Below are positions 22,026-36,527 of a stretch of DNA of 64,000 nt, piece by piece (within the stretch, counting starts at the first letter, position 1; every line of letters starts with the position of its first letter). The notes under the pieces are model-generated. The model saw nothing but the letters and a program-made list of their open reading frames with translations. It did no database searches and had not been told where the DNA came from. The stretch comes from Candidatus Omnitrophota bacterium (GTDB lineage Bacteria; Omnitrophota; Gorgyraeia; Gygaellales; Profunditerraquicolaceae): assembly GCA_030693145.1 (NCBI GenBank), contig JAUYBI010000015.1, positions 8,619 to 72,618 on the forward strand, written 5' to 3'. The translations under genes and the position numbers were made by a program.

Positions 22026-22445
22026 ATGAATAATCAGGATATTAAGAATTTAAAGAAGCGTTATTTTATCTGGCTCTATAAAGCCGCCAAAGAAACCTTT
22101 GATAAATACGAGCGTAAGTTTACGCAAGTGGATATTGATAAGGATATCCTGGAAGAGATGGAGAAAGAGCTTTTAGGCTCCTATCTTCCTCATGAAAAAG
22201 ACGCCCTGCAAATGCAGATCAACGATTTTCAAAAATATATCGAGAATAAAGAAAAGTCTTGTTCAGAATTCAGGGATCAGCATAAAAAGATCAATCCGGA
22301 TTTTATTTTCTCAGAGATAAAACTGAATGCTATTGAGAAAGTAATTGTTAAGGGGTTAGGCAAAAGAGGCTTAGAGGAAATAAAATCCCTTTATGAAAAA
22401 GAAATGACTGAACGCATCTTAAAGAATACGGAGCTTTCCCGGTAA
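22026..22445 (+). CDS. Hypothetical helical protein
   Basis: 139-aa ORF inside the operon. Lys/Glu-rich with no recognisable motif. Confidence 0.4.
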   Translation: MNNQDIKNLKKRYFIWLYKAAKETFDKYERKFTQVDIDKDILEEMEKELLGSYLPHEKDALQMQINDFQKYIENKEKSCSEFRDQHKKINPDFIFSEIKLNAIEKVIVKGLGKRGLEEIKSLYEKEMTERILKNTELSR

Positions 22446-23356: not shown

Positions 23357-23462
23357 CAATTTTTGCGGGTCCCCGCCACTAAATCGTTGGCGGGCAGGCT
23401 GTCTTGGGTATTTTCTAGCGCTGACGCGCGTCGAAAACACCCAAGCCACCCGCAAAATAGAC
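23357..23462. repeat. GC-rich palindromic element, family D (TTTTTGCGGGT..CTTGGGTATTTTC..GAAAACACCCAAG..ACCCGCAAAA) with an internal 26-bp hairpin insert. Left boundary of the AT-rich islet
   Basis: Near-reverse-complement of the 28745 element. About 65% GC in a ~42% GC background. Confidence 0.7.
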
Positions 23463-23528
23463 AAATTAATAGACTCTCAGAGTTAGTGAAAATAGAAACG
23501 GTCCCATTATTTTCTCAAGGAGGGGGCG

Positions 23529-24191
23529 ATGGAAAAAGAAACATTAGCGCTGATTCAGGTAATATCAGAGAATTCATCGTTCAAAGAATCTATTCTAAAA
23601 ACATTATTAGTAGCAATTTTAAGTGGTACAGCAGTATATTATGTTCCTAGATTGTTCAAGTTGATTAAACACCGCAGTAAACCGATTCTAACTTATCATT
23701 TTAATGGAGATACTTATTTAGAGTTAGATAAAATAAGACATTCTTTTGGGAAGAAAACGGTGGATAAGGGTGCGTCTAATGGTAAAGCGTGGGAACATAC
23801 AACGGATCAGATAGATGGAGGAGCAACTACCTGTTATGGGCCATACACCAAAGAGATACCTTTTCGAGGGAAATATAAAGCAAGATTTCGAATAAAACTC
23901 TGCGGAATAAAAGACAATAATTCCCATATTATAACTTTAGATGTTGCTTATGGGAAGTTAAGTGCAGATGAAACTAAGATGCAATTAGGGTTGCTTAAAA
24001 CCGAGAGACACTTGAGAACTGCAGATTTTATTGATGGTAAATATAAAGATTTTGATGTCGAATTCGAATACGACGGAGAATCATTGGTAGAATTTAGATG
24101 TTCAGTGCTTAGTCCTTTTAATTTTACAAATAGAGTTAGCCGAATATTTTTTGATAATGTAAAAGTATTTTTGGTATCAGAATTAATTTAG
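23529..24191 (+). CDS. Hypothetical single-TM protein, AT-rich, function unknown
   Basis: 220 aa. N-terminal TM helix (LLVAILSGTAVYYV) and a soluble domain with no recognisable motif. Flanked by degenerate inverted half-copies of the GGACGGTTCT hairpin family. RBS aaggaggg. Confidence 0.5.
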   Translation: MEKETLALIQVISENSSFKESILKTLLVAILSGTAVYYVPRLFKLIKHRSKPILTYHFNGDTYLELDKIRHSFGKKTVDKGASNGKAWEHTTDQIDGGATTCYGPYTKEIPFRGKYKARFRIKLCGIKDNNSHIITLDVAYGKLSADETKMQLGLLKTERHLRTADFIDGKYKDFDVEFEYDGESLVEFRCSVLSPFNFTNRVSRIFFDNVKVFLVSELI

Positions 24192-24205
24192 TTTCTGTAA
24201 TAAAA

Positions 24206-24856
24206 GTGACCGTTTCTATTTTTTTCAAGGAGATTTTAAAAGAAATGACCAAATATGAAAAATGCGATCTTATAATTGCTGCTGTAGCTGCTTTTTTTAC
24301 AACTACGGCTATAATCTGGGTTTTATTTAAAGAAACAATACTGGCTCGCTGGAGAGCGCCAAAATTACAAAGTCTTATTAATATGGATATGCCTTATGTA
24401 ACAAAACAAGGGAGAACTTATTATTATCATTTAGGGATTAAGAATATTGGTAGGGCGACTGCTCAAAATTGTCGTGGTTATGTCGACAGAATTTATGAAT
24501 ATAATAATGGACAATATGAAAGAATAAAGAATTTTATGCCTATGCCGTTATATTGGGCTAGAGAAGAGAAGTCAGCCACATTCATTGGGCCAGACCAGGA
24601 GAAATTCCTGGATTTGGGTACTATTGACACAGATTGTTCATATGCTGTAGGTAAGCGCCCATTTGTATTATGGTTTAGAGAATATAGTGATACCAGCCGG
24701 CTTTTCCTGGGTAGATATAAGATTAGGATTATTTTATATTCCGAAAATACAGAAAGTTTACCTGTAGAATTATATATTAGTTGGAGTGGTCAGGCTAAAG
24801 AAGAATATATGGATATGCTGAAAGAATTAATAATAAGTAAAGAATTAATAAAATAA
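24206..24856 (+). CDS. Hypothetical single-TM protein, AT-rich, function unknown
   Basis: 216 aa. N-terminal TM helix (LIIAAVAAFFTTTAIIWVLF) and a soluble domain rich in Tyr/Arg. No recognisable motif. Confidence 0.5.
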   Translation: MTVSIFFKEILKEMTKYEKCDLIIAAVAAFFTTTAIIWVLFKETILARWRAPKLQSLINMDMPYVTKQGRTYYYHLGIKNIGRATAQNCRGYVDRIYEYNNGQYERIKNFMPMPLYWAREEKSATFIGPDQEKFLDLGTIDTDCSYAVGKRPFVLWFREYSDTSRLFLGRYKIRIILYSENTESLPVELYISWSGQAKEEYMDMLKELIISKELIK

Positions 24857-24865
24857 GGTAGGGAT

Positions 24866-24955
24866 ATATTTTAGCGGGTGACACGGAGGCGGGTCCCCTG
24901 CCGCGCGCAACGCAAGTGAGCACGGTAGGGTGCCGCAGTGGCAGGACGCGCGTAA
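24866..24955. repeat. GC-rich structured element (TTTTAGCGGGTG...CGCGCG) directly upstream of crcB
   Basis: About 70% GC with multiple complementary GC-rich blocks. It does not fit the fluoride riboswitch consensus by eye. Confidence 0.55.
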
Positions 24956-24960
24956 GTATT

Positions 24961-25335
24961 ATGATGAAATTATTGAACTTGATTATTGGGGGAGCGGTAG
25001 GGACAGTTGCCAGGTATTTTTTAGCCGGCGTTGTTTACAGGTTTATGGGTGCTGGGTTCCCTTATGGTACATTAATTGTAAATATCAGCGGCTGTTTTAT
25101 CCTGGGTTTTTTAGCTGCTTTATCGGATAAGAAATTTATTCTTGGGCCGGATGCGCGCCTATTGTTGATGATTGGTTTTTGCGGGGCTTTTACCACATTC
25201 TCAACCTTGATCTTTGAGTCTGATAGCTTAGTTAGAAATGGCCAGGCAATCCGTGCTTTTACTAATATCTTTGCCAGCGTAATTTTAGGCTTTATATTAT
25301 TTAGAGTAGGCAGTTTATTAGGAGAGATAATATGA
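24961..25335 (+). CDS. crcB: Fluoride ion channel CrcB/FluC
   Basis: 124 aa from the ATG at 24961 (MMKLLNLIIGGAVGTVARY..., GFCGAFTTFSTL). Four TM helices typical of the Fluc family. The upstream part of the track ORF translates a GC-rich structured element. Confidence 0.8.
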   Translation: MMKLLNLIIGGAVGTVARYFLAGVVYRFMGAGFPYGTLIVNISGCFILGFLAALSDKKFILGPDARLLLMIGFCGAFTTFSTLIFESDSLVRNGQAIRAFTNIFASVILGFILFRVGSLLGEII

Positions 25336-25661
25336 AAATTCCCGCGGATGGAAAACTTTTGCGTATTTTTATTGGTGAAGCAGACAAATGGAATGGCAAG
25401 CCACTTTATGAAGAGATTGTGTTTTTAGCCAAGAAAAACGGTTTAGCTGGAGCAACGGCAATTAAAGGGTTTATGGGGTTTGGCTGTAAAAGCCATATGC
25501 ATACGGCTAATTTACTGCGGCTTTCCGAGGACCTGCCGGTGGTTATTGAAATCGTGGATAGCGAAGAAAAAATCAATCAATTTATTCCCCAACTGGATAG
25601 CATGGTTAAGGAAGGATTGGTTACTCTTGAAAAGGCAAACGTGATTATGTACCGGGCTTAA
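25332..25661 (+). CDS. DUF190-family small protein (commonly paired with crcB)
   Basis: 109 aa. LLRIFIGEADKWNGKPLYE ... GATAIKGFMGFG resembles DUF190. Start overlaps the crcB stop (ATGA). Confidence 0.6.
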   Translation: MKIPADGKLLRIFIGEADKWNGKPLYEEIVFLAKKNGLAGATAIKGFMGFGCKSHMHTANLLRLSEDLPVVIEIVDSEEKINQFIPQLDSMVKEGLVTLEKANVIMYRA

Positions 25662-25744
25662 TTTAAGAAAAAACGAGCGGGAAGATATGAGCTTGACAAT
25701 GTTCTCAGATATGATACAATTGTTCTCAAAGGGAGAACAGTAAG

Positions 25745-26323
25745 ATGCTCAGTGCGTTAATATCGTCTGGCTCGCGAAGAAAAATCCTGACTCAATTTTT
25801 GTCTCATCCGGATGAGAAATACTATGTCCGGCAGTTAGCGGTTATTCTTGGAGTATCAGTGGGAACAATTCATCGTGAGCTTATTCGGCTGCAGGGCAGC
25901 GGTATATTAAATTCGGATAACGTAGGTAATTTAAGGTTTTTCCGCGTAAATAAAGCGTCGCCGGTTTTTAAAGAATTAAAACAGATTATCTTTAAAACCG
26001 AGGGTGTCCAGGGCAGGCTTAAAGCAAAGTTAAAAGACCTAAAAGGGCTTAAAACCAGCTTTATTTATGGATCATTTGCCAAGAGAGAAGAAAACGCGCA
26101 TAGCGATATTGATCTTTTTCTCTTAGGTGATATTTCCGAAGATGAGTTAATTCAAAGAATAAGTGCTTTGGAGGGAGAGTTTGACAGGGAAATAAATTTT
26201 ACAATTTATACGGTTTCTGATTTTAAGAAAGAGATGAAAAGAGGTGGCTCTTTTCTAAGAGATGTAATTAAGAACCCGAAGATTTTTTTGGTTGGTAGTA
26301 TGGATGTGTTGAATGGATTATAA
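25745..26323 (+). CDS. Winged-HTH plus minimal nucleotidyltransferase (MNT) protein
   Basis: N-terminal ArsR-like HTH (YVRQLAVILGVSVGTIHRELIRL). NTase motif GSFAKREENAHSDIDLFLLGD (GS..DxD). Confidence 0.65.
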   Translation: MLSALISSGSRRKILTQFLSHPDEKYYVRQLAVILGVSVGTIHRELIRLQGSGILNSDNVGNLRFFRVNKASPVFKELKQIIFKTEGVQGRLKAKLKDLKGLKTSFIYGSFAKREENAHSDIDLFLLGDISEDELIQRISALEGEFDREINFTIYTVSDFKKEMKRGGSFLRDVIKNPKIFLVGSMDVLNGL

Positions 26324-26780
26324 TAAATTTATTGAAGATTATTTATCCCGTGGTTTAATTAAAAAACAGCCTGTTGGTTTTGATCAGATAAATAGTTTTA
26401 TAACACAATCAAAGCAGGAATTAAAAGATTGTAATAATATATTGGATATAAGCGCGAAAATCGCCTATTCATCGGCGTATACGGCAATGCTTTACGCGGC
26501 GCGGGCGTTGATGTTACTTGCCGGGTATCGGCCGGCGGGAGTTAATCAGCATAAGACAGTAATTGAATTTGTTGGCGTATGCGCGGGGGATGAATATAGA
26601 GATTTGATTAAGAAGTTTGACGTGATGCGTAAGAAAAGAAATTTACTTATGTATGAACCTTGGGAGGTTAATGTGTCTCCTGCCGATTCTAGAAATGCGG
26701 TAAATACTGCCGCGGAGTTTATCGAGTTTATCATAGTTAAGATTAAGAAAGATAATCCGCAGGATGAATTTGAGTTTTAG
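26313..26780 (+). CDS. HEPN-domain protein (partner of the upstream MNT)
   Basis: 155 aa, overlapping the MNT gene by 11 nt. HEPN-like helical region AKIAYSSAYTAMLYAARALMLLAGYRP. Confidence 0.6.
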   Translation: MDYNKFIEDYLSRGLIKKQPVGFDQINSFITQSKQELKDCNNILDISAKIAYSSAYTAMLYAARALMLLAGYRPAGVNQHKTVIEFVGVCAGDEYRDLIKKFDVMRKKRNLLMYEPWEVNVSPADSRNAVNTAAEFIEFIIVKIKKDNPQDEFEF

Positions 26781-26892
26781 CTTTTCGTAAATAAAAGTTT
26801 ATTTAGAAGTAATGGGGTCAGAATTATTTGTTGACGGAAAAATGAGAGTGGGTAGTAGGTACTAGAGATAATTAACAGAAAGGTAAAATAAG

Positions 26893-27058
26893 ATGCAAAT
26901 GCAAAAAACGTTCATTTAACTGGAAAAGATCTGACGGAGATGGTGCAGCTTCGGAGGCAGGATGTGGGCAAGTACGCGATTGTGCCTGGGCCGCGCGACC
27001 GTTTGGATGTATTAATGAAAAAAATTGAGAATCCGGTGCGTAATTTTTCATTTATGAA
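26893..27058 (+). pseudogene. Degenerate 5' fragment (about 56 codons, frameshifted) duplicating the start of the phosphorylase gene at 27992
   Basis: About 90% nucleotide identity to 27992-28157 (agatgcaaatgcaaaa...taatttttcatttatg). A 1-nt deletion near codon 5 breaks the frame. It ends at a half copy of the GGGGACGGTTCT hairpin. Confidence 0.6.
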
Positions 27059-27078
27059 ATAAAGGGGACGGTTCTATT

Positions 27079-27165
27079 TAGCGGGTGGCGAGGCTTGGAC
27101 TCGAGCAGCATCTCAAAAATTCGAGCGGGCACGGTCCCGCCAAGACTCTTGGCGGGGAGCGAGAA
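27079..27165. repeat. GC-rich structured element (TTTAGCGGGTGGCGAGGCTTGG...CCAAGACTCTTGGCGGGGAGCG) upstream of the Phd/Doc module
   Basis: Complementary arms are read directly. It directly follows a half HpB repeat. Confidence 0.55.
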
Positions 27166-27199
27166 TTAGATAAAATATTTCGTTTGACTGAAGATATTT

Positions 27200-27262
27200 T
27201 TATGTTAACCTAATGGTGTATGGTTAACATATGTTAACTAAGATAACATTGGTTAACAAGAG
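27200..27262. promoter_or_regulatory. Four GTTAAC-centred half-sites forming two inverted repeats, a candidate operator for the HTH antitoxin, directly upstream of the Phd/Doc module
   Basis: GTTAAC at 27204, 27223, 27233 and 27252. The central pair forms the perfect 16-bp palindrome GTTAACATATGTTAAC. Confidence 0.5.
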
Positions 27263-27267
27263 GAGAT

Positions 27268-27534
27268 ATGATGCAAAGTAAAGAGAATGAATATGTTACG
27301 ATACCTGAATTGGCAAAGATACTTGGTTTAAGCAGGATCGCTGTTTTTAAAAAGGTAAAGAAAGGCGAGATTAAGGCCATTAAGATAGGAAAAACCTACG
27401 GAATTTCCAGAAAGCACGTAGAAAGCCTATTAGGGAAGGTTTTGGGCGAAGATGAGAAGAAAGAAATTGACCTGGCGGTAAAAAGAACTGTTAGCGAATA
27501 CGGCCAAACATTGAAGCTTTTGGGTAAAGATTAG
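27268..27534 (+). CDS. HTH DNA-binding protein (excisionase/MerR-like HTH), putative antitoxin partner of Doc
   Basis: 88 aa. VTIPELAKILGLSRIAVFKKVKKGEIKAIKIG helix-turn-helix. Its stop overlaps the doc start. Confidence 0.55.
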   Translation: MMQSKENEYVTIPELAKILGLSRIAVFKKVKKGEIKAIKIGKTYGISRKHVESLLGKVLGEDEKKEIDLAVKRTVSEYGQTLKLLGKD

Positions 27535-27956
27535 TGAAGAAACTCACGGTTAAAGAAGTTGAATATATTGCTTTTAAGTTAGCGCAGGAGTTGTTATCTT
27601 TTAAGGAGCCGATACCCGATTTTGCTACGCGTTATCCCAATATTTTGGAGAGTTGTCTGGCGACGCCATTCCAATCTTTTGGCGGGAAGTCAGGTTACCC
27701 CTCATTTATTGATAAGGCGAGCATTCTGTTTTATCTATTGATTAAAAATCACCCTTTTCAAAATGGTAATAAGAGAGTTGCCATGACAACGCTGTTGGTA
27801 TTTTTGCATAAAAATAAAAAATGGCTTAAAGCTGACACACAGGAATTCTATAATTTTACAATGTGGATAGCCCAAAGCTCGGCAAAATATAAAGAAGAAA
27901 CAATAAAAGCAATTCAGAAGTTTTTAAAAGCAAGCATAGTTGAGTTAATAACGTAA
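27534..27956 (+). CDS. doc: Doc (death-on-curing) toxin, Fic fold
   Basis: 140 aa. HPFQNGNKRVAMTTLLVFL carries the Fic/Doc motif HxFx(D/N)GNKR. Confidence 0.8.
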   Translation: MKKLTVKEVEYIAFKLAQELLSFKEPIPDFATRYPNILESCLATPFQSFGGKSGYPSFIDKASILFYLLIKNHPFQNGNKRVAMTTLLVFLHKNKKWLKADTQEFYNFTMWIAQSSAKYKEETIKAIQKFLKASIVELIT

Positions 27957-27991
27957 GCGAATTAATTAACTATTAAAAGGGAGAATAAAAG

Positions 27992-28741
27992 ATGCAGATG
28001 CAGAAGGATGTTCATTTAACCGGAAGAGATTTAACGGAGATGGTGCAGCTTCGGAGGCAGGATGTGGGTAAATACGCGATTGTGCCCGGGCCGCGCGACC
28101 GGCTGGATGTATTAATGAAGAAAATAGAAAATCCTGTACGTAATTTTTCATTTATGGAATATACCATGTATACCGGTACGTATGAAGGGATCAAGGTTAC
28201 CGGAATTAACGGCGGAAGATTTTCCACGGATACTTCGATTACTACGGAGGTAATGTGTAATGCCGGAATACAAAATATTATCCGCATCGGCACAGCCGGC
28301 TCGCTTGATGAAGATATTAAGGTCGGCGATTTATTTGTGGTAGATGAGGTTATCCGCGGAGATGGGGTAACTCCTTATTATGTAGATAAGGATTTTAAAA
28401 CAGTCAGCGATAAAAAAATCTCCGACCTTCTTTTTGAGATTGCCAAAGGTATGGGGTTAAATGTGCATCGCGGCAAGGCCTGGACCACGGATGCGCTTTT
28501 GCGCGAAACCCGCGAAATTGTCGAAGCCAAGCGTAAAGAAGGAGCAAGGGCAGTGGATATGGTATCTTCAACCCTATTAACTATTTGTCAGACATATAAT
28601 ATTAAGGCGGGATCGATATTAGCCGTAAGTGACAACGTGATTACCGGCGAGATGGGTTTTATGAACCCACTTTATTATCTGGCAGAAAGTAACTTAATCA
28701 AAATCGCGTTGGAGTTAGTGAAGAAATTGGAAGGAAAATAG
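27992..28741 (+). CDS. PNP/UDP-family nucleoside phosphorylase (uridine-phosphorylase-like; possible 5'-deoxyadenosine/MTA phosphorylase)
   Basis: 249 aa. DVHLTGRDL...YAIVPGPRDRLD aligns with the uridine phosphorylase N-terminus (DVFHLGLTK..LAIVPGDPDRV). Also RIGTAGSL. Confidence 0.7.
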   Translation: MQMQKDVHLTGRDLTEMVQLRRQDVGKYAIVPGPRDRLDVLMKKIENPVRNFSFMEYTMYTGTYEGIKVTGINGGRFSTDTSITTEVMCNAGIQNIIRIGTAGSLDEDIKVGDLFVVDEVIRGDGVTPYYVDKDFKTVSDKKISDLLFEIAKGMGLNVHRGKAWTTDALLRETREIVEAKRKEGARAVDMVSSTLLTICQTYNIKAGSILAVSDNVITGEMGFMNPLYYLAESNLIKIALELVKKLEGK

Positions 28742-28744
28742 AAT

Positions 28745-28818
28745 TTTTGCGGGTGGCTTGGGTGTTTTCGTAGCGCGTCAGCGCAAGAAAATACCCAAGA
28801 CAGGACCCGCAAAAAAAG
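28745..28818. repeat. GC-rich palindromic element, family D (TTTTTGCGGGTGGCTTGGGTGTTTTCG-TAGCGCGTCAGCGC-AAGAAAATACCCAAGACAGGACCCGCAAAAA), right boundary of the islet
   Basis: Imperfect 27-bp arms read directly. Lies between the phosphorylase and the MtnA-like gene. Confidence 0.7.
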
Positions 28819-28825
28819 GACGGAC

Positions 28826-29740
28826 ATGAAATTCTCTCCATTATTTTGGCCGATACAATTAAAAGGTAACGTTATTTATATTTTGGATGAGACCCAACTT
28901 CCTCAAAAGCTCGTCTACATAAAGGCGAAGAACTATCTTCAGGCCTGCGCGGCAATTAAACAGATGAAAACCCGCGCCGTGGGGCAGGTGCTCTTGGTAA
29001 TGTATACTTTTCTTTTAAGCAAGCGGCAGAACAAAAATTTAGCCAAAGTTGCCGCAGCGATTAATGCCACGCGGCCGACCTTGTCTTTTAAATTTTTAAC
29101 GGAGATGGTTTTAGGCTGGGAAAAAAGCGGGATGCCATTTGAGAAAAGTATTTTGGGTTTCCTGGAGATGCTTAAAGCCAAGCGTATCGAGCAGGCCGGA
29201 GAGATGGCTAAATTGCTTAAAGACGGCGAAGTGGTCCTTACGCACTGTAATATCAGCGGCCTGATGCCTTTAATTGCCCAGTTTGCTTTAGAGCAGGGCA
29301 AAAAAATAAGTTTCTATGTTACGGAGACGCGGCCATATTTGCAAGGGTCGCGCCTTACTGCCTGGGAAATTATGCGCGCGGGTTTTGAGGTAACCATCAT
29401 TACCGATAATATGGTGGCGTATTTATTATCTTTAGGTAAAGTAACTAAAGTTATCGTCGGAGCAGACCACTTAACCTTAAACGGGGACATCGCCAATAAA
29501 ATCGGCACTTATCAGATGGCGATAGTTGCCAGGTATTTTAAGATCCCTTTTTATGTAATTTGTCCGCCGGCATCGAAATTAAAAAGCGGAAAAGAAATTA
29601 AAATTGAAATCCGTCCGGGCAATGAATTAAAGATTTATCAAGGGCTGCATTTAGCGCCCAAAGAGGTTAAAGCGTATTATCCGGCTTTTGATGTTACGCC
29701 GAATAAGCTTATTACTAAACACATTTATTTAGGGGTGTAA
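28826..29740 (+). CDS. eIF-2B-family sugar-phosphate isomerase (MtnA-like methylthioribose-1-P / 5-deoxyribose-1-P isomerase)
   Basis: 304 aa. N-terminal ILDETQLPQK. C-terminal VGADHLTLNGDIANKIGTYQMAIVARYFKIPFYVICP matches the MtnA/eIF2B C-terminal signature. Confidence 0.7.
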   Translation: MKFSPLFWPIQLKGNVIYILDETQLPQKLVYIKAKNYLQACAAIKQMKTRAVGQVLLVMYTFLLSKRQNKNLAKVAAAINATRPTLSFKFLTEMVLGWEKSGMPFEKSILGFLEMLKAKRIEQAGEMAKLLKDGEVVLTHCNISGLMPLIAQFALEQGKKISFYVTETRPYLQGSRLTAWEIMRAGFEVTIITDNMVAYLLSLGKVTKVIVGADHLTLNGDIANKIGTYQMAIVARYFKIPFYVICPPASKLKSGKEIKIEIRPGNELKIYQGLHLAPKEVKAYYPAFDVTPNKLITKHIYLGV

Positions 29741-29755
29741 AATAGAGGTGTAGAT

Positions 29756-30751
29756 ATGTCTGAACATGAATTAAGGCTGGAGATAATTAAGGTTGGTAAG
29801 CGGCTTTATACTGCCGGCCTGGCCGTAGCTAAATCCGGAAATTTAAGCGCGCGCCTGGATAACGAGAATATTCTCATTACTGCCACCGGGGCAGCTTTAG
29901 GCCAGTTAAAAGAAAGCGACATCGTTAAGGTTAATTTAGCCAGCGGTAAATCCGAGGCAGGGCCAAACCCCAGCTCTGAGCTGCCTTTGCACAGTTTAGT
30001 CTATAAAAATTTTACGGCTCAGGCGGTAATTCATTGCCACCCTCCTTTAATTAACGGATATTTCGCGGTTACCAAGACACTCAAAGCGATGAGTTTTGAA
30101 ACTAAATTTTATCTCGGGGATATTCCGGTAATTCCCCAGGAAACGCCGACGGTGACGGCTCCGGCGCCGGTGATTGCCGCTTTAAAAACAAATAATCTGG
30201 TTATTCTCAAGAATCACGGGACAGTGGCGATTGCCGATAAGTTCCAAGAAGCGCTTAATATTACTGAAGCATTAGAGGAGGCAGTTAAAAGTGCTGCCAT
30301 TGCCCGCCTGTTTGATAAAAACATCCTGGATGATTTAGACCTGGCTTTAAAAGAGGATTTAAAGCGTAATGATCCGGCCTATACCATGTTTAGCCGTCAG
30401 CATATTCAGGCAATCGTGGATTTAGTTAATCAGGATGAATTTATCGCTCAAAAAGGGAAAGAGTTAGATTTAACTGTAAAATTAGCGATTAAACTTGACG
30501 ATAGCGGAGAGGTTTTTAAATTTAATTTTGAAAAAGGGAAAATCATAAAATTAGATACGGATAGCGATGCCCCTTTTGTCATTTCTGCGCCGGCGTCAGT
30601 CTGGGAGCAGGTATTTTTAGGTAAGTTGGATTCGTTTGTAGCGGTTACCCAGGGCAAGATGAAATTAAGCGGCCAATTAGGCCAGCTTTCTAAATGGTAT
30701 GTTCCATTTAACCGGCTTTTCGCTTTATTTAAAGAGGTGAAGGTCAAATGA
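29756..30751 (+). CDS. Class II aldolase/adducin-family protein with a C-terminal SCP2-like extension
   Basis: N-terminal 200 aa: SGNLSAR, AVIHCHPP (His ligands) and NHGTVAIA. C-terminal 120 aa: MKLSGQLGQL, resembling the SCP2 sterol-carrier fold. Confidence 0.7.
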   Translation: MSEHELRLEIIKVGKRLYTAGLAVAKSGNLSARLDNENILITATGAALGQLKESDIVKVNLASGKSEAGPNPSSELPLHSLVYKNFTAQAVIHCHPPLINGYFAVTKTLKAMSFETKFYLGDIPVIPQETPTVTAPAPVIAALKTNNLVILKNHGTVAIADKFQEALNITEALEEAVKSAAIARLFDKNILDDLDLALKEDLKRNDPAYTMFSRQHIQAIVDLVNQDEFIAQKGKELDLTVKLAIKLDDSGEVFKFNFEKGKIIKLDTDSDAPFVISAPASVWEQVFLGKLDSFVAVTQGKMKLSGQLGQLSKWYVPFNRLFALFKEVKVK

Positions 30752-32235
30752 ATTTAAAATGCCCGCTTTATATAAACGGCCAATTTATCGAAACCCCGGA
30801 AAAACAGAATATTGTTAATCCTTCCACCGGCAAAGTAATTGCCGAGGCTTCACTGGCTTCGATAAAAGAGGCAGAGTTGGCTTTATCCGCTGCCCGGGAG
30901 GCTTTTGACTATGGGCCGTGGACGCAATTTTCTTTGTTTGAACGCAAGGAATTTATCTCTAAGCTTGCCCAGGGTATTTTGGATAATGCCGGGATGCTCG
31001 CGGCGCTAGAAACGCAGAATACCGGTAAGCCTATTAAAGAGACTACTTTTATGGATATTCCTTCCAGCGCCAAAACATTTGAATTTATGGCGAATAATTT
31101 TATTGATTATTTGGATAATGAGAAGATTAACGTATCCGCGGACACAAAAGCAGAGTTAATCCGCGAGCCGATGGGGGTGGTAGTTTTAATTATTCCCTGG
31201 AATTATCCGCTTTTAATTGCCTGTTGGAAATTGGCTTCCGCCCTGGCTGCAGGCAATACGGTTATTCTGAAACCTTCCAGCCTTACTCCGCTTACTGCTT
31301 TGGAGCTGGCAAAAATTATCCAGCAGGCCGGTTTTCCTGCTGGAGTGGTGAATATAATTAATGGCAGCGGCGCAAAAATAGGCGAGACACTTTGCGCGGA
31401 TAAGCGCGTAGACATGATTTCTTTTACCGGAAGTAATGAAACAGGCAAACAGATTCTGCAATATTCTTCGAAAAATGTGAAGAAGACGATTATGGAGTTG
31501 GGTGGTAAATCTGCCAGCCTGATATTTAATGATGTGGATTTAGAGGTTGCGGTAAATAGCTCTTTGGCCTCTATTTTTCTAAATCAGGGCCAGATGTGCA
31601 CAGCGATGTCCAGGATTTTCGTACAAGAGGAGATTTACGATAATTTTCTGGCCAGTTTTGCCGAAAAGGCTAAACGCATAAAATTAGGTTTAGCCGATAA
31701 TCCTGAAACCCAGATGGGCCCCTTGATTAGCGACGCGCAGCGTAAAAGAGTAATTGCCTATATTGATAAGGCTAGAGCTGAAGGAGGGCGGGTAGTCTGC
31801 GGCGGGAAAATACCGGAAAACGCGGAATTGATCAATGGCTATTTCTTTGAGCCCACAGTATTAGTGGATGTGAGCACGCATTCGCACATATTTAAAGAAG
31901 AGGTTTTTGGCCCGGTAGTTTTGATGCATAAGTTTTCCGGATCGGATGAGGCGGCAAGTTTAGCCAACAGCGTGGATTTTGGTTTGGCCTGTTGCATCTG
32001 GAGTAAGGATCTACTTCTAGCGCAGGAGTTAGCCGGTAAGATAAATGCCGGCACGGTTTGGATTAATACTTATGGCATGTTTTACAATGAGCTTGCTTAT
32101 GGCGGATTCAAGCAGAGCGGTTTTGGCAAGGAGTTAGGGCGTGAAGGGTTTCTGGAGTATGTCCGTTTTAAGAATGTAATTGTAGATCAGTCGCCCGAAG
32201 GCAAACCGCTGGTTAATTACTGGTATGGATTTTAA
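30748..32235 (+). CDS. NAD(P)-dependent aldehyde dehydrogenase
   Basis: 495 aa. ELGGKSASLIF and the catalytic-Cys motif GQMCTAMSRIFVQE. Start overlaps the upstream stop (ATGA). Confidence 0.85.
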   Translation: MNLKCPLYINGQFIETPEKQNIVNPSTGKVIAEASLASIKEAELALSAAREAFDYGPWTQFSLFERKEFISKLAQGILDNAGMLAALETQNTGKPIKETTFMDIPSSAKTFEFMANNFIDYLDNEKINVSADTKAELIREPMGVVVLIIPWNYPLLIACWKLASALAAGNTVILKPSSLTPLTALELAKIIQQAGFPAGVVNIINGSGAKIGETLCADKRVDMISFTGSNETGKQILQYSSKNVKKTIMELGGKSASLIFNDVDLEVAVNSSLASIFLNQGQMCTAMSRIFVQEEIYDNFLASFAEKAKRIKLGLADNPETQMGPLISDAQRKRVIAYIDKARAEGGRVVCGGKIPENAELINGYFFEPTVLVDVSTHSHIFKEEVFGPVVLMHKFSGSDEAASLANSVDFGLACCIWSKDLLLAQELAGKINAGTVWINTYGMFYNELAYGGFKQSGFGKELGREGFLEYVRFKNVIVDQSPEGKPLVNYWYGF

Positions 32236-33758
32236 TGAATGTCGTTAATGTTTTAGAAGAGTGCGCTAAAATCTACGCGCATAAATCGGCGATTATCTTT
32301 CGCCAGGAGCAGCTTTCCTTTGTCCAGTTAAGAGATAAAGTCTTTGCTCTTGGCCAGGCCCTGCTTAAGCTGGGGGTAAAGCCCGGAGACAGGGTTGCAA
32401 TTTATCTTCCCAACTGGCCGGAATATGTTTTAAGTTATTTGGCTATTTGGTCCATCGGCGCATGCAGTGTGCCTTTGGATTTTATGCTTACGGAAGATGA
32501 AATACTTTCCTGCCTGGACCACTCCGAGGCCAAAATCCTGATCACTAAACACAAGGCTAATATTTCATTTGCGCAGCTTAAGGCAAAATTACCTTCATTG
32601 AAGAATATTATATCCTGCCAATCAGAAGATCAGGAAAGTTTAAGTTTTGAAAAACTTCTGGCAGAGGGGAGGAGTTGTTCTCCCGAGGTAAAGATTGATG
32701 AAAGGGATTGCGCCATAATTTTTTATACCTCCGGTACTACCGGTAAGCCCAAGGGCGTTTTAATCAGCTATGTTCAGCTGGATGCGCCGCCAAAATCCAT
32801 GGCTTTTTTTGTGAATTCGGATTTAAGTGCAAAAGATACCGCGCTCTGTGCTTTGCCATTTTCGCATTTAGGGGGATTGATTTATATCCAGAATACGATT
32901 ACCTTCGGGCTGACCCTGGTGTTGATGGAGCGTTTTATGCCGCTGGATTTTTTAAGGAACATCCAGAATTATAAAGTTAATTTTTTCTGGATTGTCCCTT
33001 CGATGTATTACGCGCTTTTGCAATTGAAAGAGTTTGAAACCTTTGATTTATCCAGTTTGCGCTGGATTGTGACTTTTGGCGCGTCGAATTCACCGGAGGC
33101 TTTGCGCCGGTTCCAGCAATTCTGCCCGCAGGCCTGCTTGTTAAATGGCTGGGGCTTAACTGAGACCAATGCTCCGACGGTAGTTTTACCGATGGGTTCA
33201 AAGAATATCGAAAGCGTGGGCCGTCCGGCGCCCTGGATTGTGGTTAAGATATTTTCAGATAGCGGCCAAGAGCTGCCTGTTGGCCAGATAGGTGAGGTAG
33301 TAGTAAAAAGCTGGGTAGTAACCCAGGGATATTTTAAGGATACAAAGTTAACACAGGAAACTATTCGCAATGGTTGGTTTCACACCGGAGACCTGGGTAG
33401 GTTTGACGCAGAAGGCTTTCTTTATATCGTGGGCAGAAAAAAAGAGATGATTAAAGTTAGCGGAGAGATTGTTTTTGAGCCGGAGGTAGAGGCGAGTTTG
33501 CAAAAACATCCGGATGTTGCTGAGGCAGCCGTAATCGGGATAGCGGATAAATTAAGAGGAGAGGTACCCAAAGCCTTTGTGGTAGTCAAAGAAGGAAAAA
33601 GTATTTCCACGGAAGAGTTGCGTTATTTCCTGCGCCAGCATCTGGCGCATTTTAAGATTCCGCATTATTTTGAATTTTGCGACTCACTTCCTAAGAACCG
33701 TGTTGGTAAAATTGATAAGGAGCAGTTGAGTAAGTTAGATTATAATAAATCCTGCTGA
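32235..33758 (+). CDS. AMP-dependent synthetase/ligase (acyl-CoA synthetase family)
   Basis: 507 aa. IFYTSGTTGKPKGV AMP-binding motif and a C-terminal GEIVFEPEVE...PKNRVGKIDK. Confidence 0.8.
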   Translation: MNVVNVLEECAKIYAHKSAIIFRQEQLSFVQLRDKVFALGQALLKLGVKPGDRVAIYLPNWPEYVLSYLAIWSIGACSVPLDFMLTEDEILSCLDHSEAKILITKHKANISFAQLKAKLPSLKNIISCQSEDQESLSFEKLLAEGRSCSPEVKIDERDCAIIFYTSGTTGKPKGVLISYVQLDAPPKSMAFFVNSDLSAKDTALCALPFSHLGGLIYIQNTITFGLTLVLMERFMPLDFLRNIQNYKVNFFWIVPSMYYALLQLKEFETFDLSSLRWIVTFGASNSPEALRRFQQFCPQACLLNGWGLTETNAPTVVLPMGSKNIESVGRPAPWIVVKIFSDSGQELPVGQIGEVVVKSWVVTQGYFKDTKLTQETIRNGWFHTGDLGRFDAEGFLYIVGRKKEMIKVSGEIVFEPEVEASLQKHPDVAEAAVIGIADKLRGEVPKAFVVVKEGKSISTEELRYFLRQHLAHFKIPHYFEFCDSLPKNRVGKIDKEQLSKLDYNKSC

Positions 33759-33822: not shown

Positions 33823-34875
33823 TTGAGTAAAGAACCGTCCCTGATTATTATGCAAGACATTAAGGAGTTAAGCTTAAAAGAGCTGGAAGATAAATTACTC
33901 TCCTGGGGGAGCCCTAAATATTATGCTCGGGGGATATACGATTGGATTTATCAGAAAGGCGCTTATGAGTTTAGCCAAATGAGCAATTTGCCCGCTCCTT
34001 TAAGGAAGGCCTTAACTGATGAATTCAATATTTTAAACTTAAGGTTGGCGGATTTACGGGAGTCTGGCGACGGAACAACTAAATTTCTTTTGGAGTTAAC
34101 GGATAAGAACCTGGTGGAAGCAGTAAATATTCCCGCGCTCAAGCGTGCCACCGGATGTATTTCATCGCAGGTGGGTTGTAAATTTGGCTGCAATTTTTGC
34201 GCCAGCGCTTTAGGAGGGTTTAAGCGCAATTTAACAACCAGTGAAATTTTAGAGGAGGTACTTTATTTAAAGAATAACCTAAAAGCAGGCCAGCTGACGC
34301 ATATCGTATTTATGGGCACCGGTGAGCCGTTGGATAATTATGAAAACGTGCTGGGCGCAATCCGCCGGATTAATTCGCCGCTGGCTTTTAATATCGGAGC
34401 CAGGCGGATTACTGTTTCTACCTGCGGGATTATTCCGGGAATAGAAAGGCTTGCTCTTGAGGATTTGCAGATAGAGTTTTCCATATCTTTGCATGCCGCT
34501 GATGATAAAACCCGCAGCCAGCTTATGCCGGTAAATAATAAGTATCCCTTGGCCGCACTGATTAAGTGTTGTCAGGAATATATTGCCAAAACTAACCGCC
34601 AGATTACTTTTGAGTATATTTTAATTAAGGGGGTTAATGCGGATTTAACGGCAGCGCAAAATTTAGTCAGGCTGCTTGAGGATTTAAGATTAGCTAAAGT
34701 TAATTTAATTCCGGCAAATTCCATACCGGAATCAAGGATCAATCCCGCGGATAGCGCGCAGGTGATTTCTTTTAAAGAATATTTACTTAAAGCCGGGCTG
34801 AATGTGACCTTAAGGCGCCCGCGCGGGCAAGATATCGATGCGGCCTGCGGACAACTGAGGTTAAGGCATGAATAG
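33823..34875 (+). CDS. rlmN: 23S rRNA/tRNA adenine C2 methyltransferase RlmN (radical SAM)
   Basis: 350 aa. GCKFGCNFCAS radical SAM cluster motif in an RlmN/Cfr-family context, and the conserved C-terminal Cys (IDAACGQL). Confidence 0.75.
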   Translation: MSKEPSLIIMQDIKELSLKELEDKLLSWGSPKYYARGIYDWIYQKGAYEFSQMSNLPAPLRKALTDEFNILNLRLADLRESGDGTTKFLLELTDKNLVEAVNIPALKRATGCISSQVGCKFGCNFCASALGGFKRNLTTSEILEEVLYLKNNLKAGQLTHIVFMGTGEPLDNYENVLGAIRRINSPLAFNIGARRITVSTCGIIPGIERLALEDLQIEFSISLHAADDKTRSQLMPVNNKYPLAALIKCCQEYIAKTNRQITFEYILIKGVNADLTAAQNLVRLLEDLRLAKVNLIPANSIPESRINPADSAQVISFKEYLLKAGLNVTLRRPRGQDIDAACGQLRLRHE

Positions 34876-34911
34876 GATTAATTCAGTTATTACTGAAAAA
34901 CCCATTTTTCC

Positions 34912-34993
34912 ATCTGCTGTCATTCTGAGGAACCCCGCCTTTGGCGGGGCGACGAAGAATCTCTTGAGATCCTTCGTCGCTTTGCTCCTCAGG
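34912..34993. repeat. Nested hairpin (GTCATTCTGAGGAA-CCCCGCCTTTGGCGGGG-CGACGAAGAATCTCTTGAGATCCTTCGTCG-..CTCCTCAGGATGAC) directly upstream of the GDSL lipoprotein start
   Basis: Inverted-repeat arms read directly. Shares GTCATTC/GGATGAC ends with the 7751 element. Confidence 0.65.
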
Positions 34994-35602
34994 ATGACGA
35001 AAAGGGGTTTTTTAGTAATTATTTTGAGTATTTTTTTATCTGGCTGCGTGAAACATGAGATTAGAAATCTTGATGCTCAAGGCGCAAGTATTATTTGTTT
35101 CGGGGACAGCATTACTTTTGGCTACGGAGCAAACCCGGGAGAAGATTATCCCACAGCTTTGAGGAAATTGGTTAATTTACCGGTTATTAATGCCGGCGTT
35201 GACGGAGATACCACCTTTGCCGCTTTAGAGCGCTTAGAAAATGATGTTTTAGCTAAAAAGCCGCGTCTGGTTATCGTGGAGTTTTGCGGGAATGATTTTC
35301 TTAAAAAAATTCCTAAGGAAAATACGGTTAAAAATTTAGCTCAAATTATTGAGCGCATTCAGGAAAAGGGCGCGATGGTGGCTTTGGTGGATATTAGCGC
35401 GGGGATGTTCTTTTGGGAGTATGGAGTAGCTTTTAAAAAGTTAGCTGCCGAGAAAAGGGCAATATTTATTCCTGTAATTTTAAATAGGATTATTACTAAC
35501 CCGGCGATGAAAAGCGATTTTTTCCATCCGAATGCCCGCGGTTATCAAATTATTGCCAAGCGCATCTACCGGGTAATCGCCGCTTATATCCAGGATAAAT
35601 AA
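34994..35602 (+). CDS. SGNH/GDSL hydrolase lipoprotein (arylesterase/lysophospholipase-like)
   Basis: The ATG at 34994 gives MTKRGFLVIILSIFLSGC with a lipobox. GDSL motif ICFGDSITFGYG. The upstream part of the track ORF (from 34868) translates a nested hairpin repeat. Confidence 0.7.
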   Translation: MTKRGFLVIILSIFLSGCVKHEIRNLDAQGASIICFGDSITFGYGANPGEDYPTALRKLVNLPVINAGVDGDTTFAALERLENDVLAKKPRLVIVEFCGNDFLKKIPKENTVKNLAQIIERIQEKGAMVALVDISAGMFFWEYGVAFKKLAAEKRAIFIPVILNRIITNPAMKSDFFHPNARGYQIIAKRIYRVIAAYIQDK

Positions 35603-35623
35603 TAGAGCCAGTTAAAAATTTAA

Positions 35624-35706
35624 TGCTGGAGGAGGGAGTTGAACCCTCACGGAGTTGCCCCCATCGGTTTTTGAGACCGACGTGTATGCCATTCCACCAC
35701 TCCAGC
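35624..35706 (-). tRNA. tRNA-Leu (anticodon CAA), type II with long variable arm
   Basis: Minus-strand read GCTGGAG-TG-GTG..CAC-G-TCGGT-CTCAAAA-ACCGA-(15-nt variable arm)-GAGGG-TTCAACT-CCCTC-CTCCAGC-A. The cloverleaf was folded by hand. Confidence 0.8.
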
Positions 35707-35756
35707 AAAGATTTTTAAGTTGACGCTAAGCATTTTATATTCTAAAATAGCAAAGG

Positions 35757-36527
35757 TCAATAGATAAATTTTTGGGGCTGTAGCTCAGCTGGGACGAGCA
35801 TTTGCCTGGCAGGCAAAGGGTCGAGGGTTCGATCCCCTCCAGCTCCACTTTTTATAATTATTTCGCCAATCGACTGTAGCTTAAACTGAAGGTTAGTGCT
35901 TAGGTAATGTACGGCGCATATCCCTTTGTAGTCTTTCTTTAAAGTAGGTTTTCCTTTTGTACGGCTATCCGGTTTGCTCTTGTAAAAATTATGTAAAGGT
36001 ATCCCCGTTATATTCGACCAATATTTATTGAGTTTTTTTAAGTTTTGGTCGTATCTACACATTATCCTACAACGTAATTTTCCTTCATCAATATTAAAAG
36101 AGTTTCTTAATAAATTAATAAAGCAACGTATTATCCAGGGATCAGAATTACCAAAAACCAAACATCTGGTAGAAGGATATTTTGATCCTTCGCAAAGATA
36201 AAGAATACCACAGATAAGTTTTCCGAGTTTCGGATTTTCAAGGGAGATATTTTCAAAATGTTTTACAGAATTTTGGATATTTTCTTTCCATTGCTGAATT
36301 TTTCGGCGGTTCGCGGCAACAGCTAAGGGCCTTCCGGTTGCCGCGGAATTGATTATTTTTGTTTTTATCCGCTCTTCTTGTTGTTTAGTCATCTTGATAT
36401 CATTAACCCAACTGGAAATAGTATTCTTTGGGATTCTCATTTTTAGGTTAATTTCACCTACGGACCAACCTTTAAGCCTTAAATTTCGCGCTCTTTGTTT
36501 AGTTATTTTCGAATATACCTTTGACAT
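35757..36527 (-). CDS. AT-rich HTH-domain protein with a possible LAGLIDADG-like motif (homing-endonuclease-like?), C-terminal 30 codons overlap tRNA-Ala on the opposite strand
   Basis: 256-aa ORF. N-terminal HTH (LRLKGWSVGEINLKMRIPKNTISSWV). KLICGILYLCEGSKY resembles a LAGLIDADG-type motif. The last ~30 codons (GAGGDRTLDPLPARQMLVPAELQP) are the reverse translation of tRNA-Ala. Confidence 0.4.
   Translation of the reverse strand: MSKVYSKITKQRARNLRLKGWSVGEINLKMRIPKNTISSWVNDIKMTKQQEERIKTKIINSAATGRPLAVAANRRKIQQWKENIQNSVKHFENISLENPKLGKLICGILYLCEGSKYPSTRCLVFGNSDPWIIRCFINLLRNSFNIDEGKLRCRIMCRYDQNLKKLNKYWSNITGIPLHNFYKSKPDSRTKGKPTLKKDYKGICAVHYLSTNLQFKLQSIGEIIIKSGAGGDRTLDPLPARQMLVPAELQPQKFIY
35774..35847 (+). 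tRNA. tRNA-Ala (anticodon GGC) with G3:U70 identity pair
   Basis: GGGGCTG-TA-GCTC..GAGC-A-TTTGC-CTGGCAG-GCAAA-GGGTC-GAGGG-TTCGATC-CCCTC-CAGCTCC-A. Followed by a T-run. CCA is not encoded. Confidence 0.85.

Follow-up and report, generated by a model that had tools for sequence, protein, structure and literature searches.

Within a 64-kb (64,000-nt) stretch of DNA from an uncultured Candidatus Omnitrophota bacterium (contig JAUYBI010000015.1, positions 8,619 to 72,618), referred to here as the window, we have analysed a module of five co-directional genes whose products resemble enzymes of the dihydroxyacetone phosphate (DHAP) shunt. An initial annotation had described five such genes in a row, and all five open reading frames (ORFs) were recovered at exactly the same positions, on the plus strand and with strong Pfam scores (lengths in amino acids, aa):

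27992-28741, plus strand: PNP_UDP_1-family nucleoside phosphorylase-like protein (pnp), 249 aa; Pfam PF01048, 8.7e-34
28826-29740, plus strand: MtnA-like isomerase, aldose 1-phosphate to ketose 1-phosphate (iso), 304 aa; Pfam IF-2B, 4.6e-54
29756-30751, plus strand: class II metal-dependent aldolase-SCP2 fusion (ald), 331 aa; Aldolase_II 5.4e-37, SCP2 1.8e-05
30748-32235, plus strand: predicted non-acylating NAD(P)+ aldehyde dehydrogenase (ALDH; aldh), 495 aa; Pfam Aldedh, 5.4e-163
32235-33758, plus strand: AMP-forming acyl-CoA (or acyl-ACP) ligase, FadD/4CL-like (lig), 507 aa; AMP-binding 8.9e-85, AMP-binding_C

The overlaps of start and stop codons described earlier are also present, namely an ATGA at 30748-30751, by which the ALDH is translationally coupled to the aldolase, and a TAATG at 32233-32237 between the ALDH and ligase genes. 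Our preferred interpretation, to which we assign a probability of roughly 0.4, is that the module represents an oxidative variant of the DHAP shunt that is dedicated to, and co-evolves with, a cluster encoding a B12-binding enzyme of the radical S-adenosylmethionine (SAM) kind together with a type II polyketide synthase (PKS)-like system. Three traits set the module apart, none of which had been noticed in the initial annotation: the fusion of the aldolase to an SCP2 domain, the non-canonical active site of the phosphorylase, and the integration of the module with the upstream operon, a conserved partner, in an apparently phylum-wide supercluster.

Conserved linkage to a type II PKS-like cluster

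The following genes of the partner cluster are located upstream of the module:

12618-13622, plus strand: ApbA/PanE-like reductase, conserved member of the cluster
13626-14213, plus strand: TIGR04076-family protein (tandem), conserved member of the cluster
14248-15543, plus strand: ketosynthase (KS)-alpha, KS1; ketoacyl-synt N and C (Pfam), FabF-like (NCBIfam), Cys-His-His intact
15612-16841, plus strand: KS-beta/chain-length-factor-like protein, KS2; ketoacyl-synt N and C, FabF-like, Arg/Asp/Asn in place of Cys/His/His
16887-18347, plus strand: B12-binding radical SAM enzyme, BchE/HpnJ-like; Pfam B12-binding and Radical_SAM
18435-18671, plus strand: acyl carrier protein (ACP), 78 aa, with a GVDSTEM motif; from ORF and translation
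18741-19541, plus strand: PF04199 cyclase (Pfam)
19632-20072, plus strand: SRPBCC polyketide cyclase (Pfam)
20069-21199, plus strand: MFS transporter (Pfam)
21117-22016, plus strand: SDR ketoreductase (Pfam), the true start probably lying later
22026-22445, plus strand: 139-aa protein without assigned family
22445-23356, plus strand: Amidohydro_2 protein (Pfam), closest to LigW, ACMSD and gamma-resorcylate decarboxylases

Inspection of pairwise alignments located the KS1 catalytic residues in the motifs TGCTAG, AHGSST and GHPL, whereas KS2 has Arg, Asp and Asn at these positions and is predicted to be catalytically dead. With an active KS, an inactive KS-beta and a discrete ACP, the cluster has the predicted make-up of a type II PKS-like system. 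It is probably the one to which antiSMASH assigns the label 'ladderane' in metagenome-assembled genomes (MAGs) of Omnitrophota (PMC9902471), a comparative-genomics paper in which the phosphorylase, the aldolase and the ALDH go unmentioned; a literature search rendered no paper naming Omnitrophota in connection with methionine salvage or deoxyadenosine. The radical SAM enzyme scored 204 bits on the BchE model and 151 bits on that of HpnJ, both under the cut-off. Here and below, NCBIfam profile scores are compared with the cut-off of each model, and statements on domains missing from the window cover the ORFs scanned in its 64 kb.

A tblastn comparison of the window proteins with 80 species-level loci, all of them from Omnitrophota or from mislabelled MAGs of the Planctomycetes-Verrucomicrobia-Chlamydiae group, showed the genes pnp-iso-ald-aldh-lig in this order in about 80 species-level genomes of Omnitrophota; chance does not account for their juxtaposition. 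The window aldolase itself is 100% identical to a protein from an Omnitrophota MAG at NCBI. The stretch upstream of pnp contains, in these loci, the two KS genes, the B12 radical SAM gene, and those for the cyclase, the SRPBCC, MFS and SDR proteins, the 139-aa ORF and Amidohydro_2. The radical SAM, KS and cyclase genes were found in 48/48 loci with at least 9 kb of sequence upstream of the aldolase gene, and the 13 loci without them all have less than 5 kb there. The previous description of the module as lying just downstream of a B12-radical SAM operon was thus right about the presence of the operon and understated a conserved relationship. Spacing varies to some extent: Amidohydro_2 abuts pnp (gap below 150 nt) in 14 loci, and the ligase gene is at least 150 nt away from aldh in 14 of 58. 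In the close clade the order pnp-iso-ald-aldh-lig-rlmN-GDSL is found throughout and everything from Amidohydro_2 to leuS is syntenic, so that gene order within that clade proves little by itself.

More informative are six distant loci (L083, L084, L085, L087, L088 and L089), in which the aldolase is 37-40% identical to that of the window; another locus, P0124, was left out of the comparison of contexts because its contig is too short. Gene order is shuffled in the six deep lineages, and none of rlmN, nfo and leuS is found close by. In all six, nevertheless, the genes for the isomerase (together with a small additional IF-2B-like ORF), the aldolase-SCP2 fusion and the ALDH directly adjoin the radical SAM gene, and in five of them they are contiguous with the KS, KS, ACP and cyclase genes, those for ApbA and SRPBCC being present in most. 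Genes with a PP-binding domain occupy the ACP position in every locus but L084, an ApbA and TIGR04076 pair precedes the KS genes in L088, and ApbA is also found in L083, L085 and L089; the neighbours called in L084 are a radical SAM enzyme, Amidohydro_2, a class IV aminotransferase, DeoC, a zinc alcohol dehydrogenase and an MMPL transporter. The ligase gene lies upstream of pnp in deep lineages and is missing wherever pnp is missing. Adjacency that is kept through rearrangement constitutes good evidence for functional coupling of the module with its partner cluster. The iso-ald-aldh genes and the radical SAM/KS operon form one conserved supercluster of about 21 kb, which appears to be a trait of the whole phylum.

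It could be argued that the five genes perform a housekeeping salvage and merely share inherited synteny with the biosynthetic cluster. The conserved block from Amidohydro_2 to leuS in the close clade, where synteny is weak evidence, is compatible with such a view, as is the extreme conservation of the phosphorylase, whose median identity across loci (89.6%) is, with that of the radical SAM enzyme (89.7%), the highest of the region (81.7% for LeuRS, 84% for endonuclease IV). Nonetheless, the adjacency survives in the six deep lineages in which rlmN, nfo and leuS are not retained, and we regard a lack of coupling as rather improbable. Divergence is uneven in L084, its radical SAM enzyme being 75% identical to that of the window and the isomerase, aldolase and ALDH 35-38%.

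Proposed pathway and enzyme assignments

In the dedicated, oxidative shunt that we favour, flux would run from a nucleoside towards a thioester. The purine-type phosphorylase would convert a SAM-derived 5'-deoxynucleoside into a 5-deoxypentose 1-phosphate, the simplest substrate being 5'-deoxyadenosine, which the co-clustered radical SAM enzyme would release at every turnover. The MtnA-like isomerase would then form the ketose 1-phosphate, which the class II aldolase would split into DHAP and an aldehyde. The coupled ALDH would oxidize this aldehyde to the free acid, in place of the reduction that takes place in known DHAP shunts, and the FadD-like ligase would convert the acid into a thioester that may prime the KS-alpha/KS-beta pair. 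Canonical chain-length factors carry at the Cys position a Gln that is linked to decarboxylative priming; since the KS-beta has Arg instead, a thioester made by the ligase would be a plausible primer. The individual reactions have precedents: a phosphorylase or kinase, an isomerase and an aldolase yield DHAP and acetaldehyde in the 5-deoxyribose pathway (PMC6079011), and the fluoroacetate pathway (PMC3999930, PMC6302742) employs a phosphorylase, an isomerase, an aldolase and an aldehyde dehydrogenase one after the other.

The phosphorylase scored 82-116 bits on the uridine phosphorylase and DeoD models (cut-offs 230-280), with 116 bits for the Udp model TIGR01718 (cut-off 280), 45-55 bits on models of 5'-methylthioadenosine (MTA)/S-adenosylhomocysteine (SAH) nucleosidases, 47 bits on HpnG, 27 bits on futalosine hydrolase and 20.3 bits on the MTAP (MtnP) model TIGR01694 (cut-off 274.85). 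A residue-level alignment to Escherichia coli Udp (1k3f) showed that the phosphate-site residues Gly26/Arg30/Arg91/Thr94 are retained as Gly33/Arg37/Arg98/Thr101, including two of the three phosphate-binding arginines, while Met55 stands in for the third, the inter-subunit Arg48. The 14-residue Udp insertion that bears the uracil-binding Gln166/Arg168 is missing, and the E-M-E motif of Udp corresponds to Asp189-Met190-Val191, with Val191 at the position of the ribose-binding Glu198. These differences rule out a uridine phosphorylase, and with the low MTAP score neither MtnP nor Udp, two of the three families named earlier, can be upheld. Ser213-Asp214 corresponds to the catalytic Asp motif of DeoD and MTAN, the one whose Asp protonates the purine. 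All these residues, as well as His8 and Arg76, are invariant across 63 Omnitrophota homologues. The protein is therefore best described, from its alignments, as a putative DeoD/Udp-like enzyme of the purine type that belongs to the hexameric NP-I group and whose sugar and phosphate pocket is non-canonical, and its substrate cannot be deduced from homology. No kinase of the MtnK/DrdK kind, which with the nucleosidase MtnN provides the alternative entry into the shunt, is present at the module.

Two other substrates have to be weighed at this point. One possibility is ordinary catabolism of purine nucleosides, in which adenosine, inosine or guanosine would be converted through ribose 1-phosphate and ribulose 1-phosphate into DHAP and glycolaldehyde, the latter being oxidized to glycolate and perhaps activated to glycolyl-CoA, so that a small-celled, host-dependent bacterium would gain carbon from scavenged nucleosides. 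The purine-type Asp214 would suit this role, and so would the invariant His8 if it is the counterpart of the His that binds the 5'-hydroxyl in Udp and DeoD, a possible correspondence that comes from motif comparison because the alignments start at residues 17-27. A weak match of the aldolase to the model of haloarchaeal ribulose-1-phosphate aldolase (68 bits) points the same way, as does a passage in PMC6302742, citing Nakano 2013, according to which enzymes of the methionine salvage pathway are able to carry ribose through it. This kind of catabolism would leave unexplained the universal linkage to the radical SAM/PKS genes and the SCP2 domain, and it is at odds with the replacement of the ribose-binding Glu by Val and with the loss of the phosphorylase from several lineages that keep the rest; we consider it unlikely.

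The other candidate substrate is MTA, which would give rise to 2-(methylthio)acetaldehyde, (methylthio)acetate and (methylthio)acetyl-CoA, serving either to salvage sulfur or to prime the PKS with a sulfur-containing unit. Its enzyme logic is that of the DHAP-ethylene/methanethiol shunt (PMC6302742), and a FadD-like ligase is better suited to a C3-sized thioether acid than to acetate. Against it, no polyamine or other MTA-forming gene is found in the cluster or the window, the phosphorylase is not MtnP-like, and what B12 radical SAM enzymes give off is SAH and 5'-deoxyadenosine, not MTA, all of which makes this substrate distinctly improbable.

The second enzyme had been annotated as an MtnA-type isomerase, an assignment that our comparison bears out. 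It scored 238.7 bits on the MtnA equivalog model NF004326 (cut-off 271) and 219 bits on another, just below the cut-off in both cases, and 199.4 bits on the subfamily model TIGR00524, exceeding its cut-off of 185.85, as against 123 bits on the ribose-1,5-bisphosphate isomerase model TIGR00511 (cut-off 314). It matches Thermotoga MtnA (1t9k) at 1.4e-51 with a C-terminus about 25 aa shorter, and comparison with 1t9k and 2yrf shows it to retain the catalytic Cys ('lthCN') and Asp ('GAD'). Neither RuBisCO nor AMP phosphorylase is encoded in the window; these profile scores and the content of the window rule out a ribose-1,5-bisphosphate isomerase acting with either of them.

The small additional IF-2B-like ORF of the distant loci (141-162 aa, matching the middle of the profile) occupies the interval between isomerase and aldolase genes, overlaps the aldolase start in most of these loci (L083 9583-10008, L084 9543-10019, L085 9531-10004, L087 9468-9956, L088 9523-10011 and L089 9519-10004) and is absent from the clade of the window.

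The aldolase gene encodes a 331-aa fusion with the class II aldolase domain in residues 1-186 and the SCP2 domain in residues 211-331, approximately. The AlphaFold model (pLDDT 89) and the profile match indicate that the SCP2 domain is genuine, with the alpha/beta fold of that family; binding of lipids or acyl-CoA is a prediction. When lineages of about 40% identity are compared, the SCP2 domain shows the same degree of conservation as the catalytic one, and the linker is not conserved. Similar fusions form about 30 clusters (at the 50% identity level) that are 33-40% identical to the window protein, and those clusters whose source is named come from Omnitrophota too; nothing relevant on such fusions was found in the literature. 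The three metal-binding His, the catalytic Glu and the phosphate-binding Asn/Ser-Ser of FucA are retained. The earlier assignment to class II aldolases can thus be kept as far as the catalytic domain is concerned, but it took no account of the fused SCP2 domain, which C2 aldehydes do not explain.

It can also be the case that this aldolase homologue is instead an MtnB-like dehydratase, a decarboxylase or an epimerase in an oxygen-independent route similar to methionine salvage, in which NAD+-dependent oxidation by the ALDH and decarboxylation by Amidohydro_2 would replace the dioxygenase step and a class IV aminotransferase would perform the final transamination. An invariant Glu115 lies at or beside the position of the FucA acid/base residue Tyr113, where MtnB dehydratases (MtnB/APIP) have Glu; the best sequence match in the PDB is the decarboxylase-type YgbL; and a class IV (fold type IV, pyridoxal phosphate-dependent) aminotransferase is encoded next to Amidohydro_2 in L060 (7308-8117) and L084 (7812-8615), at the position of pnp, between Amidohydro_2 and the isomerase gene, and the spacing in L062 and L063 is alike. 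On the other hand, the scores on the MtnB models TIGR03328 (64 bits, cut-off 137.05) and NF006672 (72.7 bits, cut-off 226) are far below the cut-offs and below those on generic aldolase models (120 bits). Moreover, Amidohydro_2 is closest to decarboxylases of aromatic acids, no MTA-forming enzyme is encoded nearby, and no MtnC, MtnW, MtnX or MtnD (enolase-phosphatase, RuBisCO-like protein and acireductone dioxygenase domains) was found among the window ORFs scanned. Whereas a bona fide MtnB with a full methionine salvage pathway is ruled out by the scores and by the lack of the downstream enzymes in the window, the broader MtnB-like route appears improbable. Both arrangements that the initial annotation had set against its own view, this one and the ribose-1,5-bisphosphate isomerase with RuBisCO or AMP phosphorylase, were not found in the window.

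Regarding the last two enzymes, the best NCBIfam models for the ALDH are those of betaine, aminobutyraldehyde and phenylacetaldehyde dehydrogenases, all below cut-off, and its PDB matches are broad, non-diagnostic relatives. A CoA-acylating enzyme is ruled out by the low score on the methylmalonate semialdehyde dehydrogenase model (260 bits, cut-off 448). The ALDH is thus predicted to be a generic, non-acylating enzyme, and a ligase would be required to reach a thioester. The ligase scored 440 bits on PRK06187 (cut-off 476), and its closest PDB relatives, FadD5, feruloyl-CoA synthetase, oxalyl-CoA synthetase and 4CL, are not of the Acs type and are also too broad to be diagnostic. The suggestion that these two enzymes oxidize and activate the released aldehyde is accordingly consistent with a non-acylating ALDH and an AMP-forming ligase, but a ligase of the FadD/4CL kind does not look like an acetyl-CoA synthetase.

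The character of the ligase bears on a further alternative, in which the substrate is a 5'-C-adenosylated hydrophobic intermediate. An unsaturated or aromatic polyketide or lipid would receive the 5'-deoxyadenosyl radical from the radical SAM enzyme; after removal of the base by the phosphorylase, the isomerase and the aldolase would release C1'-C3' as DHAP and C4'-C5' would stay on the lipid as an aldehyde, which the ALDH and the ligase would turn into an acyl-CoA two carbons longer that returns to the KS pair, with the SCP2 domain holding the hydrophobic tail. Adenosylated intermediates are known from the futalosine pathway (MqnE/MqnB) and from adenosylhopane synthesis (HpnH/HpnG). A FadD/4CL-like ligase, lipid-binding-type SRPBCC proteins and MFS or MMPL exporters in the cluster, and the altered sugar pocket of the phosphorylase would all be expected, a supplied primer would make sense of the Arg in KS-beta, and a conservation of about 90% is shared by the radical SAM enzyme and the phosphorylase. 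Nevertheless, a class B (B12-binding), BchE/HpnJ-like radical SAM enzyme is unlike the known adenosylating enzymes, the phosphorylase performs poorly on the HpnG and futalosine hydrolase models, and SCP2 folds can also be purely structural, as matches of the domain to the Eis family illustrate, its role in binding a ligand being a prediction. An adenosyl-mediated C2 homologation, previously undescribed and feeding a lipid or aromatic product specific to the Omnitrophota, would follow from it, and seems to us as unlikely as the adenosylated intermediate itself.

Several observations weigh against the dedicated shunt acting on 5'-deoxyadenosine. None of the five module proteins (0/5) reaches an NCBIfam equivalog cut-off. 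The phosphorylase lacks the Glu, second in the E-M-E motif, that binds the 2'- and 3'-hydroxyls of ribose in Udp, DeoD and MTAN, and if the correspondence of His8 holds, a 5'-deoxy sugar would be a poorer fit than an ordinary 5'-hydroxyl. Glu115 of the aldolase may be MtnB-like, so that chemistry other than an aldol cleavage is possible; acetaldehyde does not call for a conserved SCP2 domain, which a C2-aldehyde pathway leaves unexplained. The ligase, judged by its relatives, is not Acs-like, and together with the ALDH it would provide an ATP-wasteful route to acetyl-CoA. Finally, pnp and lig are missing from the cluster in L084, L087 and L060-L063, which keep iso-ald-aldh, and for this reason the link to a starter unit cannot be universal; in L084 the ALDH gene is followed by a DeoC-family aldolase, a zinc alcohol dehydrogenase and an MMPL/DUF1329/DUF1302 exporter set. 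The DHAP-shunt-like character proposed in the initial annotation therefore holds for the domain series from phosphorylase to ligase, and is strained by the identity of the phosphorylase, the SCP2 fusion and these losses.

Inserted segment and neighbouring features

In the window the two halves of the supercluster are split by a 4.6-kb insertion, recognized because other loci have only part of it or none. The insertion, the repeats associated with it and the genes following the module are as follows:

23357-27991, plus strand: insertion, with two ORFs without family, crcB, DUF190, NTase/HEPN and HTH/Doc (Pfam, NCBIfam)
24916-25335, plus strand: crcB
25332-25661, plus strand: DUF190
25745-26780, plus strand: NTase/HEPN pair of toxin-antitoxin type
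27268-27956, plus strand: HTH/Doc(-Fic) toxin-antitoxin pair
28744-28815, plus strand: palindromic repeat with a strong hairpin in the pnp-iso spacer, -43.6 kcal/mol, z -7.2
about 23390-23453, minus strand: inverted second copy of the repeat after Amidohydro_2, -40.3 kcal/mol, z -4.4
33823-34875, plus strand: rlmN (TIGR00048, 370 bits, cut-off 290)
34868-35602, plus strand: GDSL hydrolase

In at least 20 Omnitrophota loci (L004, L008, L009, L011, L013, L014, L017, L018, L024, L028-L032, L035, L038, L042, L077, L079 and L080), pnp is immediately preceded by the fluoride channel gene crcB and DUF190, the gap from DUF190 to pnp being about 20-25 nt, and in the window the toxin-antitoxin insertion separates them from it; this arrangement may derive from a single insertion inherited by one subclade. 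Doc is found directly upstream of pnp in L002, L004 and L035 as well. A route to a halo- or fluoro-acetyl-CoA primer, which is suggested by the adjacency of crcB and by nothing else, is much less likely than the other readings, to the point of being hardly credible. Neither the gathering threshold nor a cut-off of E<=1 revealed a fluoride riboswitch, and the window ORFs of at least 120 aa contain no fluorinase/chlorinase (SAM_HAT/DUF62) domain; a fluoride link to the module was set aside on these grounds, and the adjacency stands as an unexplained observation.

The palindromic repeat is about 65-70 nt long, and its two copies in the window, in opposite orientation, bracket the inserted segment and pnp. 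Copies also occur in L010 (871-890) and L015 (2039-2058), and the repeat is absent from most loci, where the pnp-iso gap is 0-10 nt. It resembles an element of the repetitive extragenic palindromic (REP) or miniature inverted-repeat transposable element (MITE) kind.

Downstream of the module, rlmN had been pointed out as a further source of 5'-deoxyadenosine. Both rlmN and the GDSL hydrolase gene follow the module in close loci and are not beside it in L083-L085 and L087-L089; they are probably outside the system. As its adjacency is lost in the deep lineages, rlmN is ruled out as a functional partner, and the link amounts to lineage-specific synteny of the close clade. Divergent genes for tRNA-Leu(CAA) and tRNA-Ala(GGC) are located in the interval between the GDSL gene and nfo (35623-36527), and a minus-strand ORF of 256 aa, whose only match is a weak one to a terminase HTH, overlaps them; the distance from GDSL to nfo ranges from about 0.4 to 5 kb among loci, which suggests a variable spot beside tRNA genes. 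A PF04008 'adenosine-specific kinase' family protein (59831-60316, 2.2e-73) is encoded 26 kb downstream, with no evident link to the module.

Comparison with known systems and significance

The closest relative of the proposed pathway is the DHAP shunt for 5-deoxyribose disposal, with MtnP, or MtnN and MtnK/DrdK, followed by MtnA/DrdI and Ald2/DrdA (PMC6079011, PMC10986504, PMC6302742). Common to both are the sequence from nucleoside through pentose 1-phosphate and ketose 1-phosphate to DHAP and an aldehyde, the IF-2B-family isomerase, the FucA-like metal-dependent aldolase and a rationale in the removal of radical SAM by-products. The shunt is a stand-alone three-gene operon, whereas the module sits within a PKS-like/radical SAM cluster; its phosphorylase is non-canonical and DeoD/Udp-like and its aldolase SCP2-fused, and it would oxidize and CoA-activate an aldehyde that the shunt reduces or feeds into central metabolism.

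The fluoroacetate pathway of Streptomyces cattleya and Nocardia brasiliensis comprises the fluorinase FlA, FlB, a 5-fluoro-5-deoxyribose 1-phosphate (5-FDRP) isomerase, cleavage of the fuculose-aldolase type and fluoroacetaldehyde dehydrogenase (PMC3999930). It is the only described pathway with the four-enzyme series of the module, ALDH included, and starts from a SAM-derived 5'-substituted 5'-deoxyadenosine; the crcB gene upstream of pnp is a further point in common. However, FlB is MTAP-like, the window contains no fluorinase/chlorinase homologue, a thioesterase and a transaldolase are absent, and no fluoride riboswitch was detected.

Futalosine (MqnE/MqnB) and adenosylhopane (HpnH/HpnG) synthesis likewise combine a radical SAM enzyme with a PNP_UDP_1 protein that removes the base, reuse ribose carbons and have a hydrophobic or aromatic partner. 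They differ in that the radical SAM enzyme of the cluster is B12-binding and BchE/HpnJ-like, in the weak HpnG and futalosine hydrolase scores already mentioned, and in having no counterpart to the isomerase, aldolase and ALDH steps. Type II PKS and aryl-polyene-type systems, with a KS:chain-length-factor heterodimer and a starter primed by an AMP ligase, share with the partner cluster an active KS with an inactive KS-beta, an ACP, an SDR, SRPBCC and PF04199 cyclases, a decarboxylase-like tailoring enzyme and a transporter; in Omnitrophota, by contrast, the KS-beta has Arg and not Gln, and the B12 radical SAM gene and the nucleoside-cleaving module are integral. As for the haloarchaeal non-carboxylating pentose bisphosphate/ribulose-1-phosphate aldolase route and the route through AMP phosphorylase, ribose-1,5-bisphosphate isomerase and RuBisCO, they too involve an IF-2B-family isomerase and the conversion of a nucleoside-derived pentose phosphate into DHAP and a C2 aldehyde by a class II aldolase, but the isomerase of the module is MtnA-like (239 against 123 bits) and the window has no kinase, ribulose-1,5-bisphosphate phosphatase, AMP phosphorylase or RuBisCO.

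If our interpretation is correct, DHAP-shunt chemistry can be built into a biosynthetic cluster and is not confined to stand-alone waste disposal, and the shunt would have acquired an end that is oxidative and CoA-activating, together with an aldolase fused to a lipid carrier. It would also call for caution with the 'ladderane'-type biosynthetic gene clusters reported in Omnitrophota (PMC9902471), which would cover a different, uncharacterised pathway. Two enzyme variants, the DeoD-like phosphorylase with Met and Val in its pocket and the aldolase-SCP2 fusion, would be directly testable for new specificities, and an uncultured phylum with uncharted lipids and secondary metabolites would be provided with a conserved and experimentally tractable set of genes.

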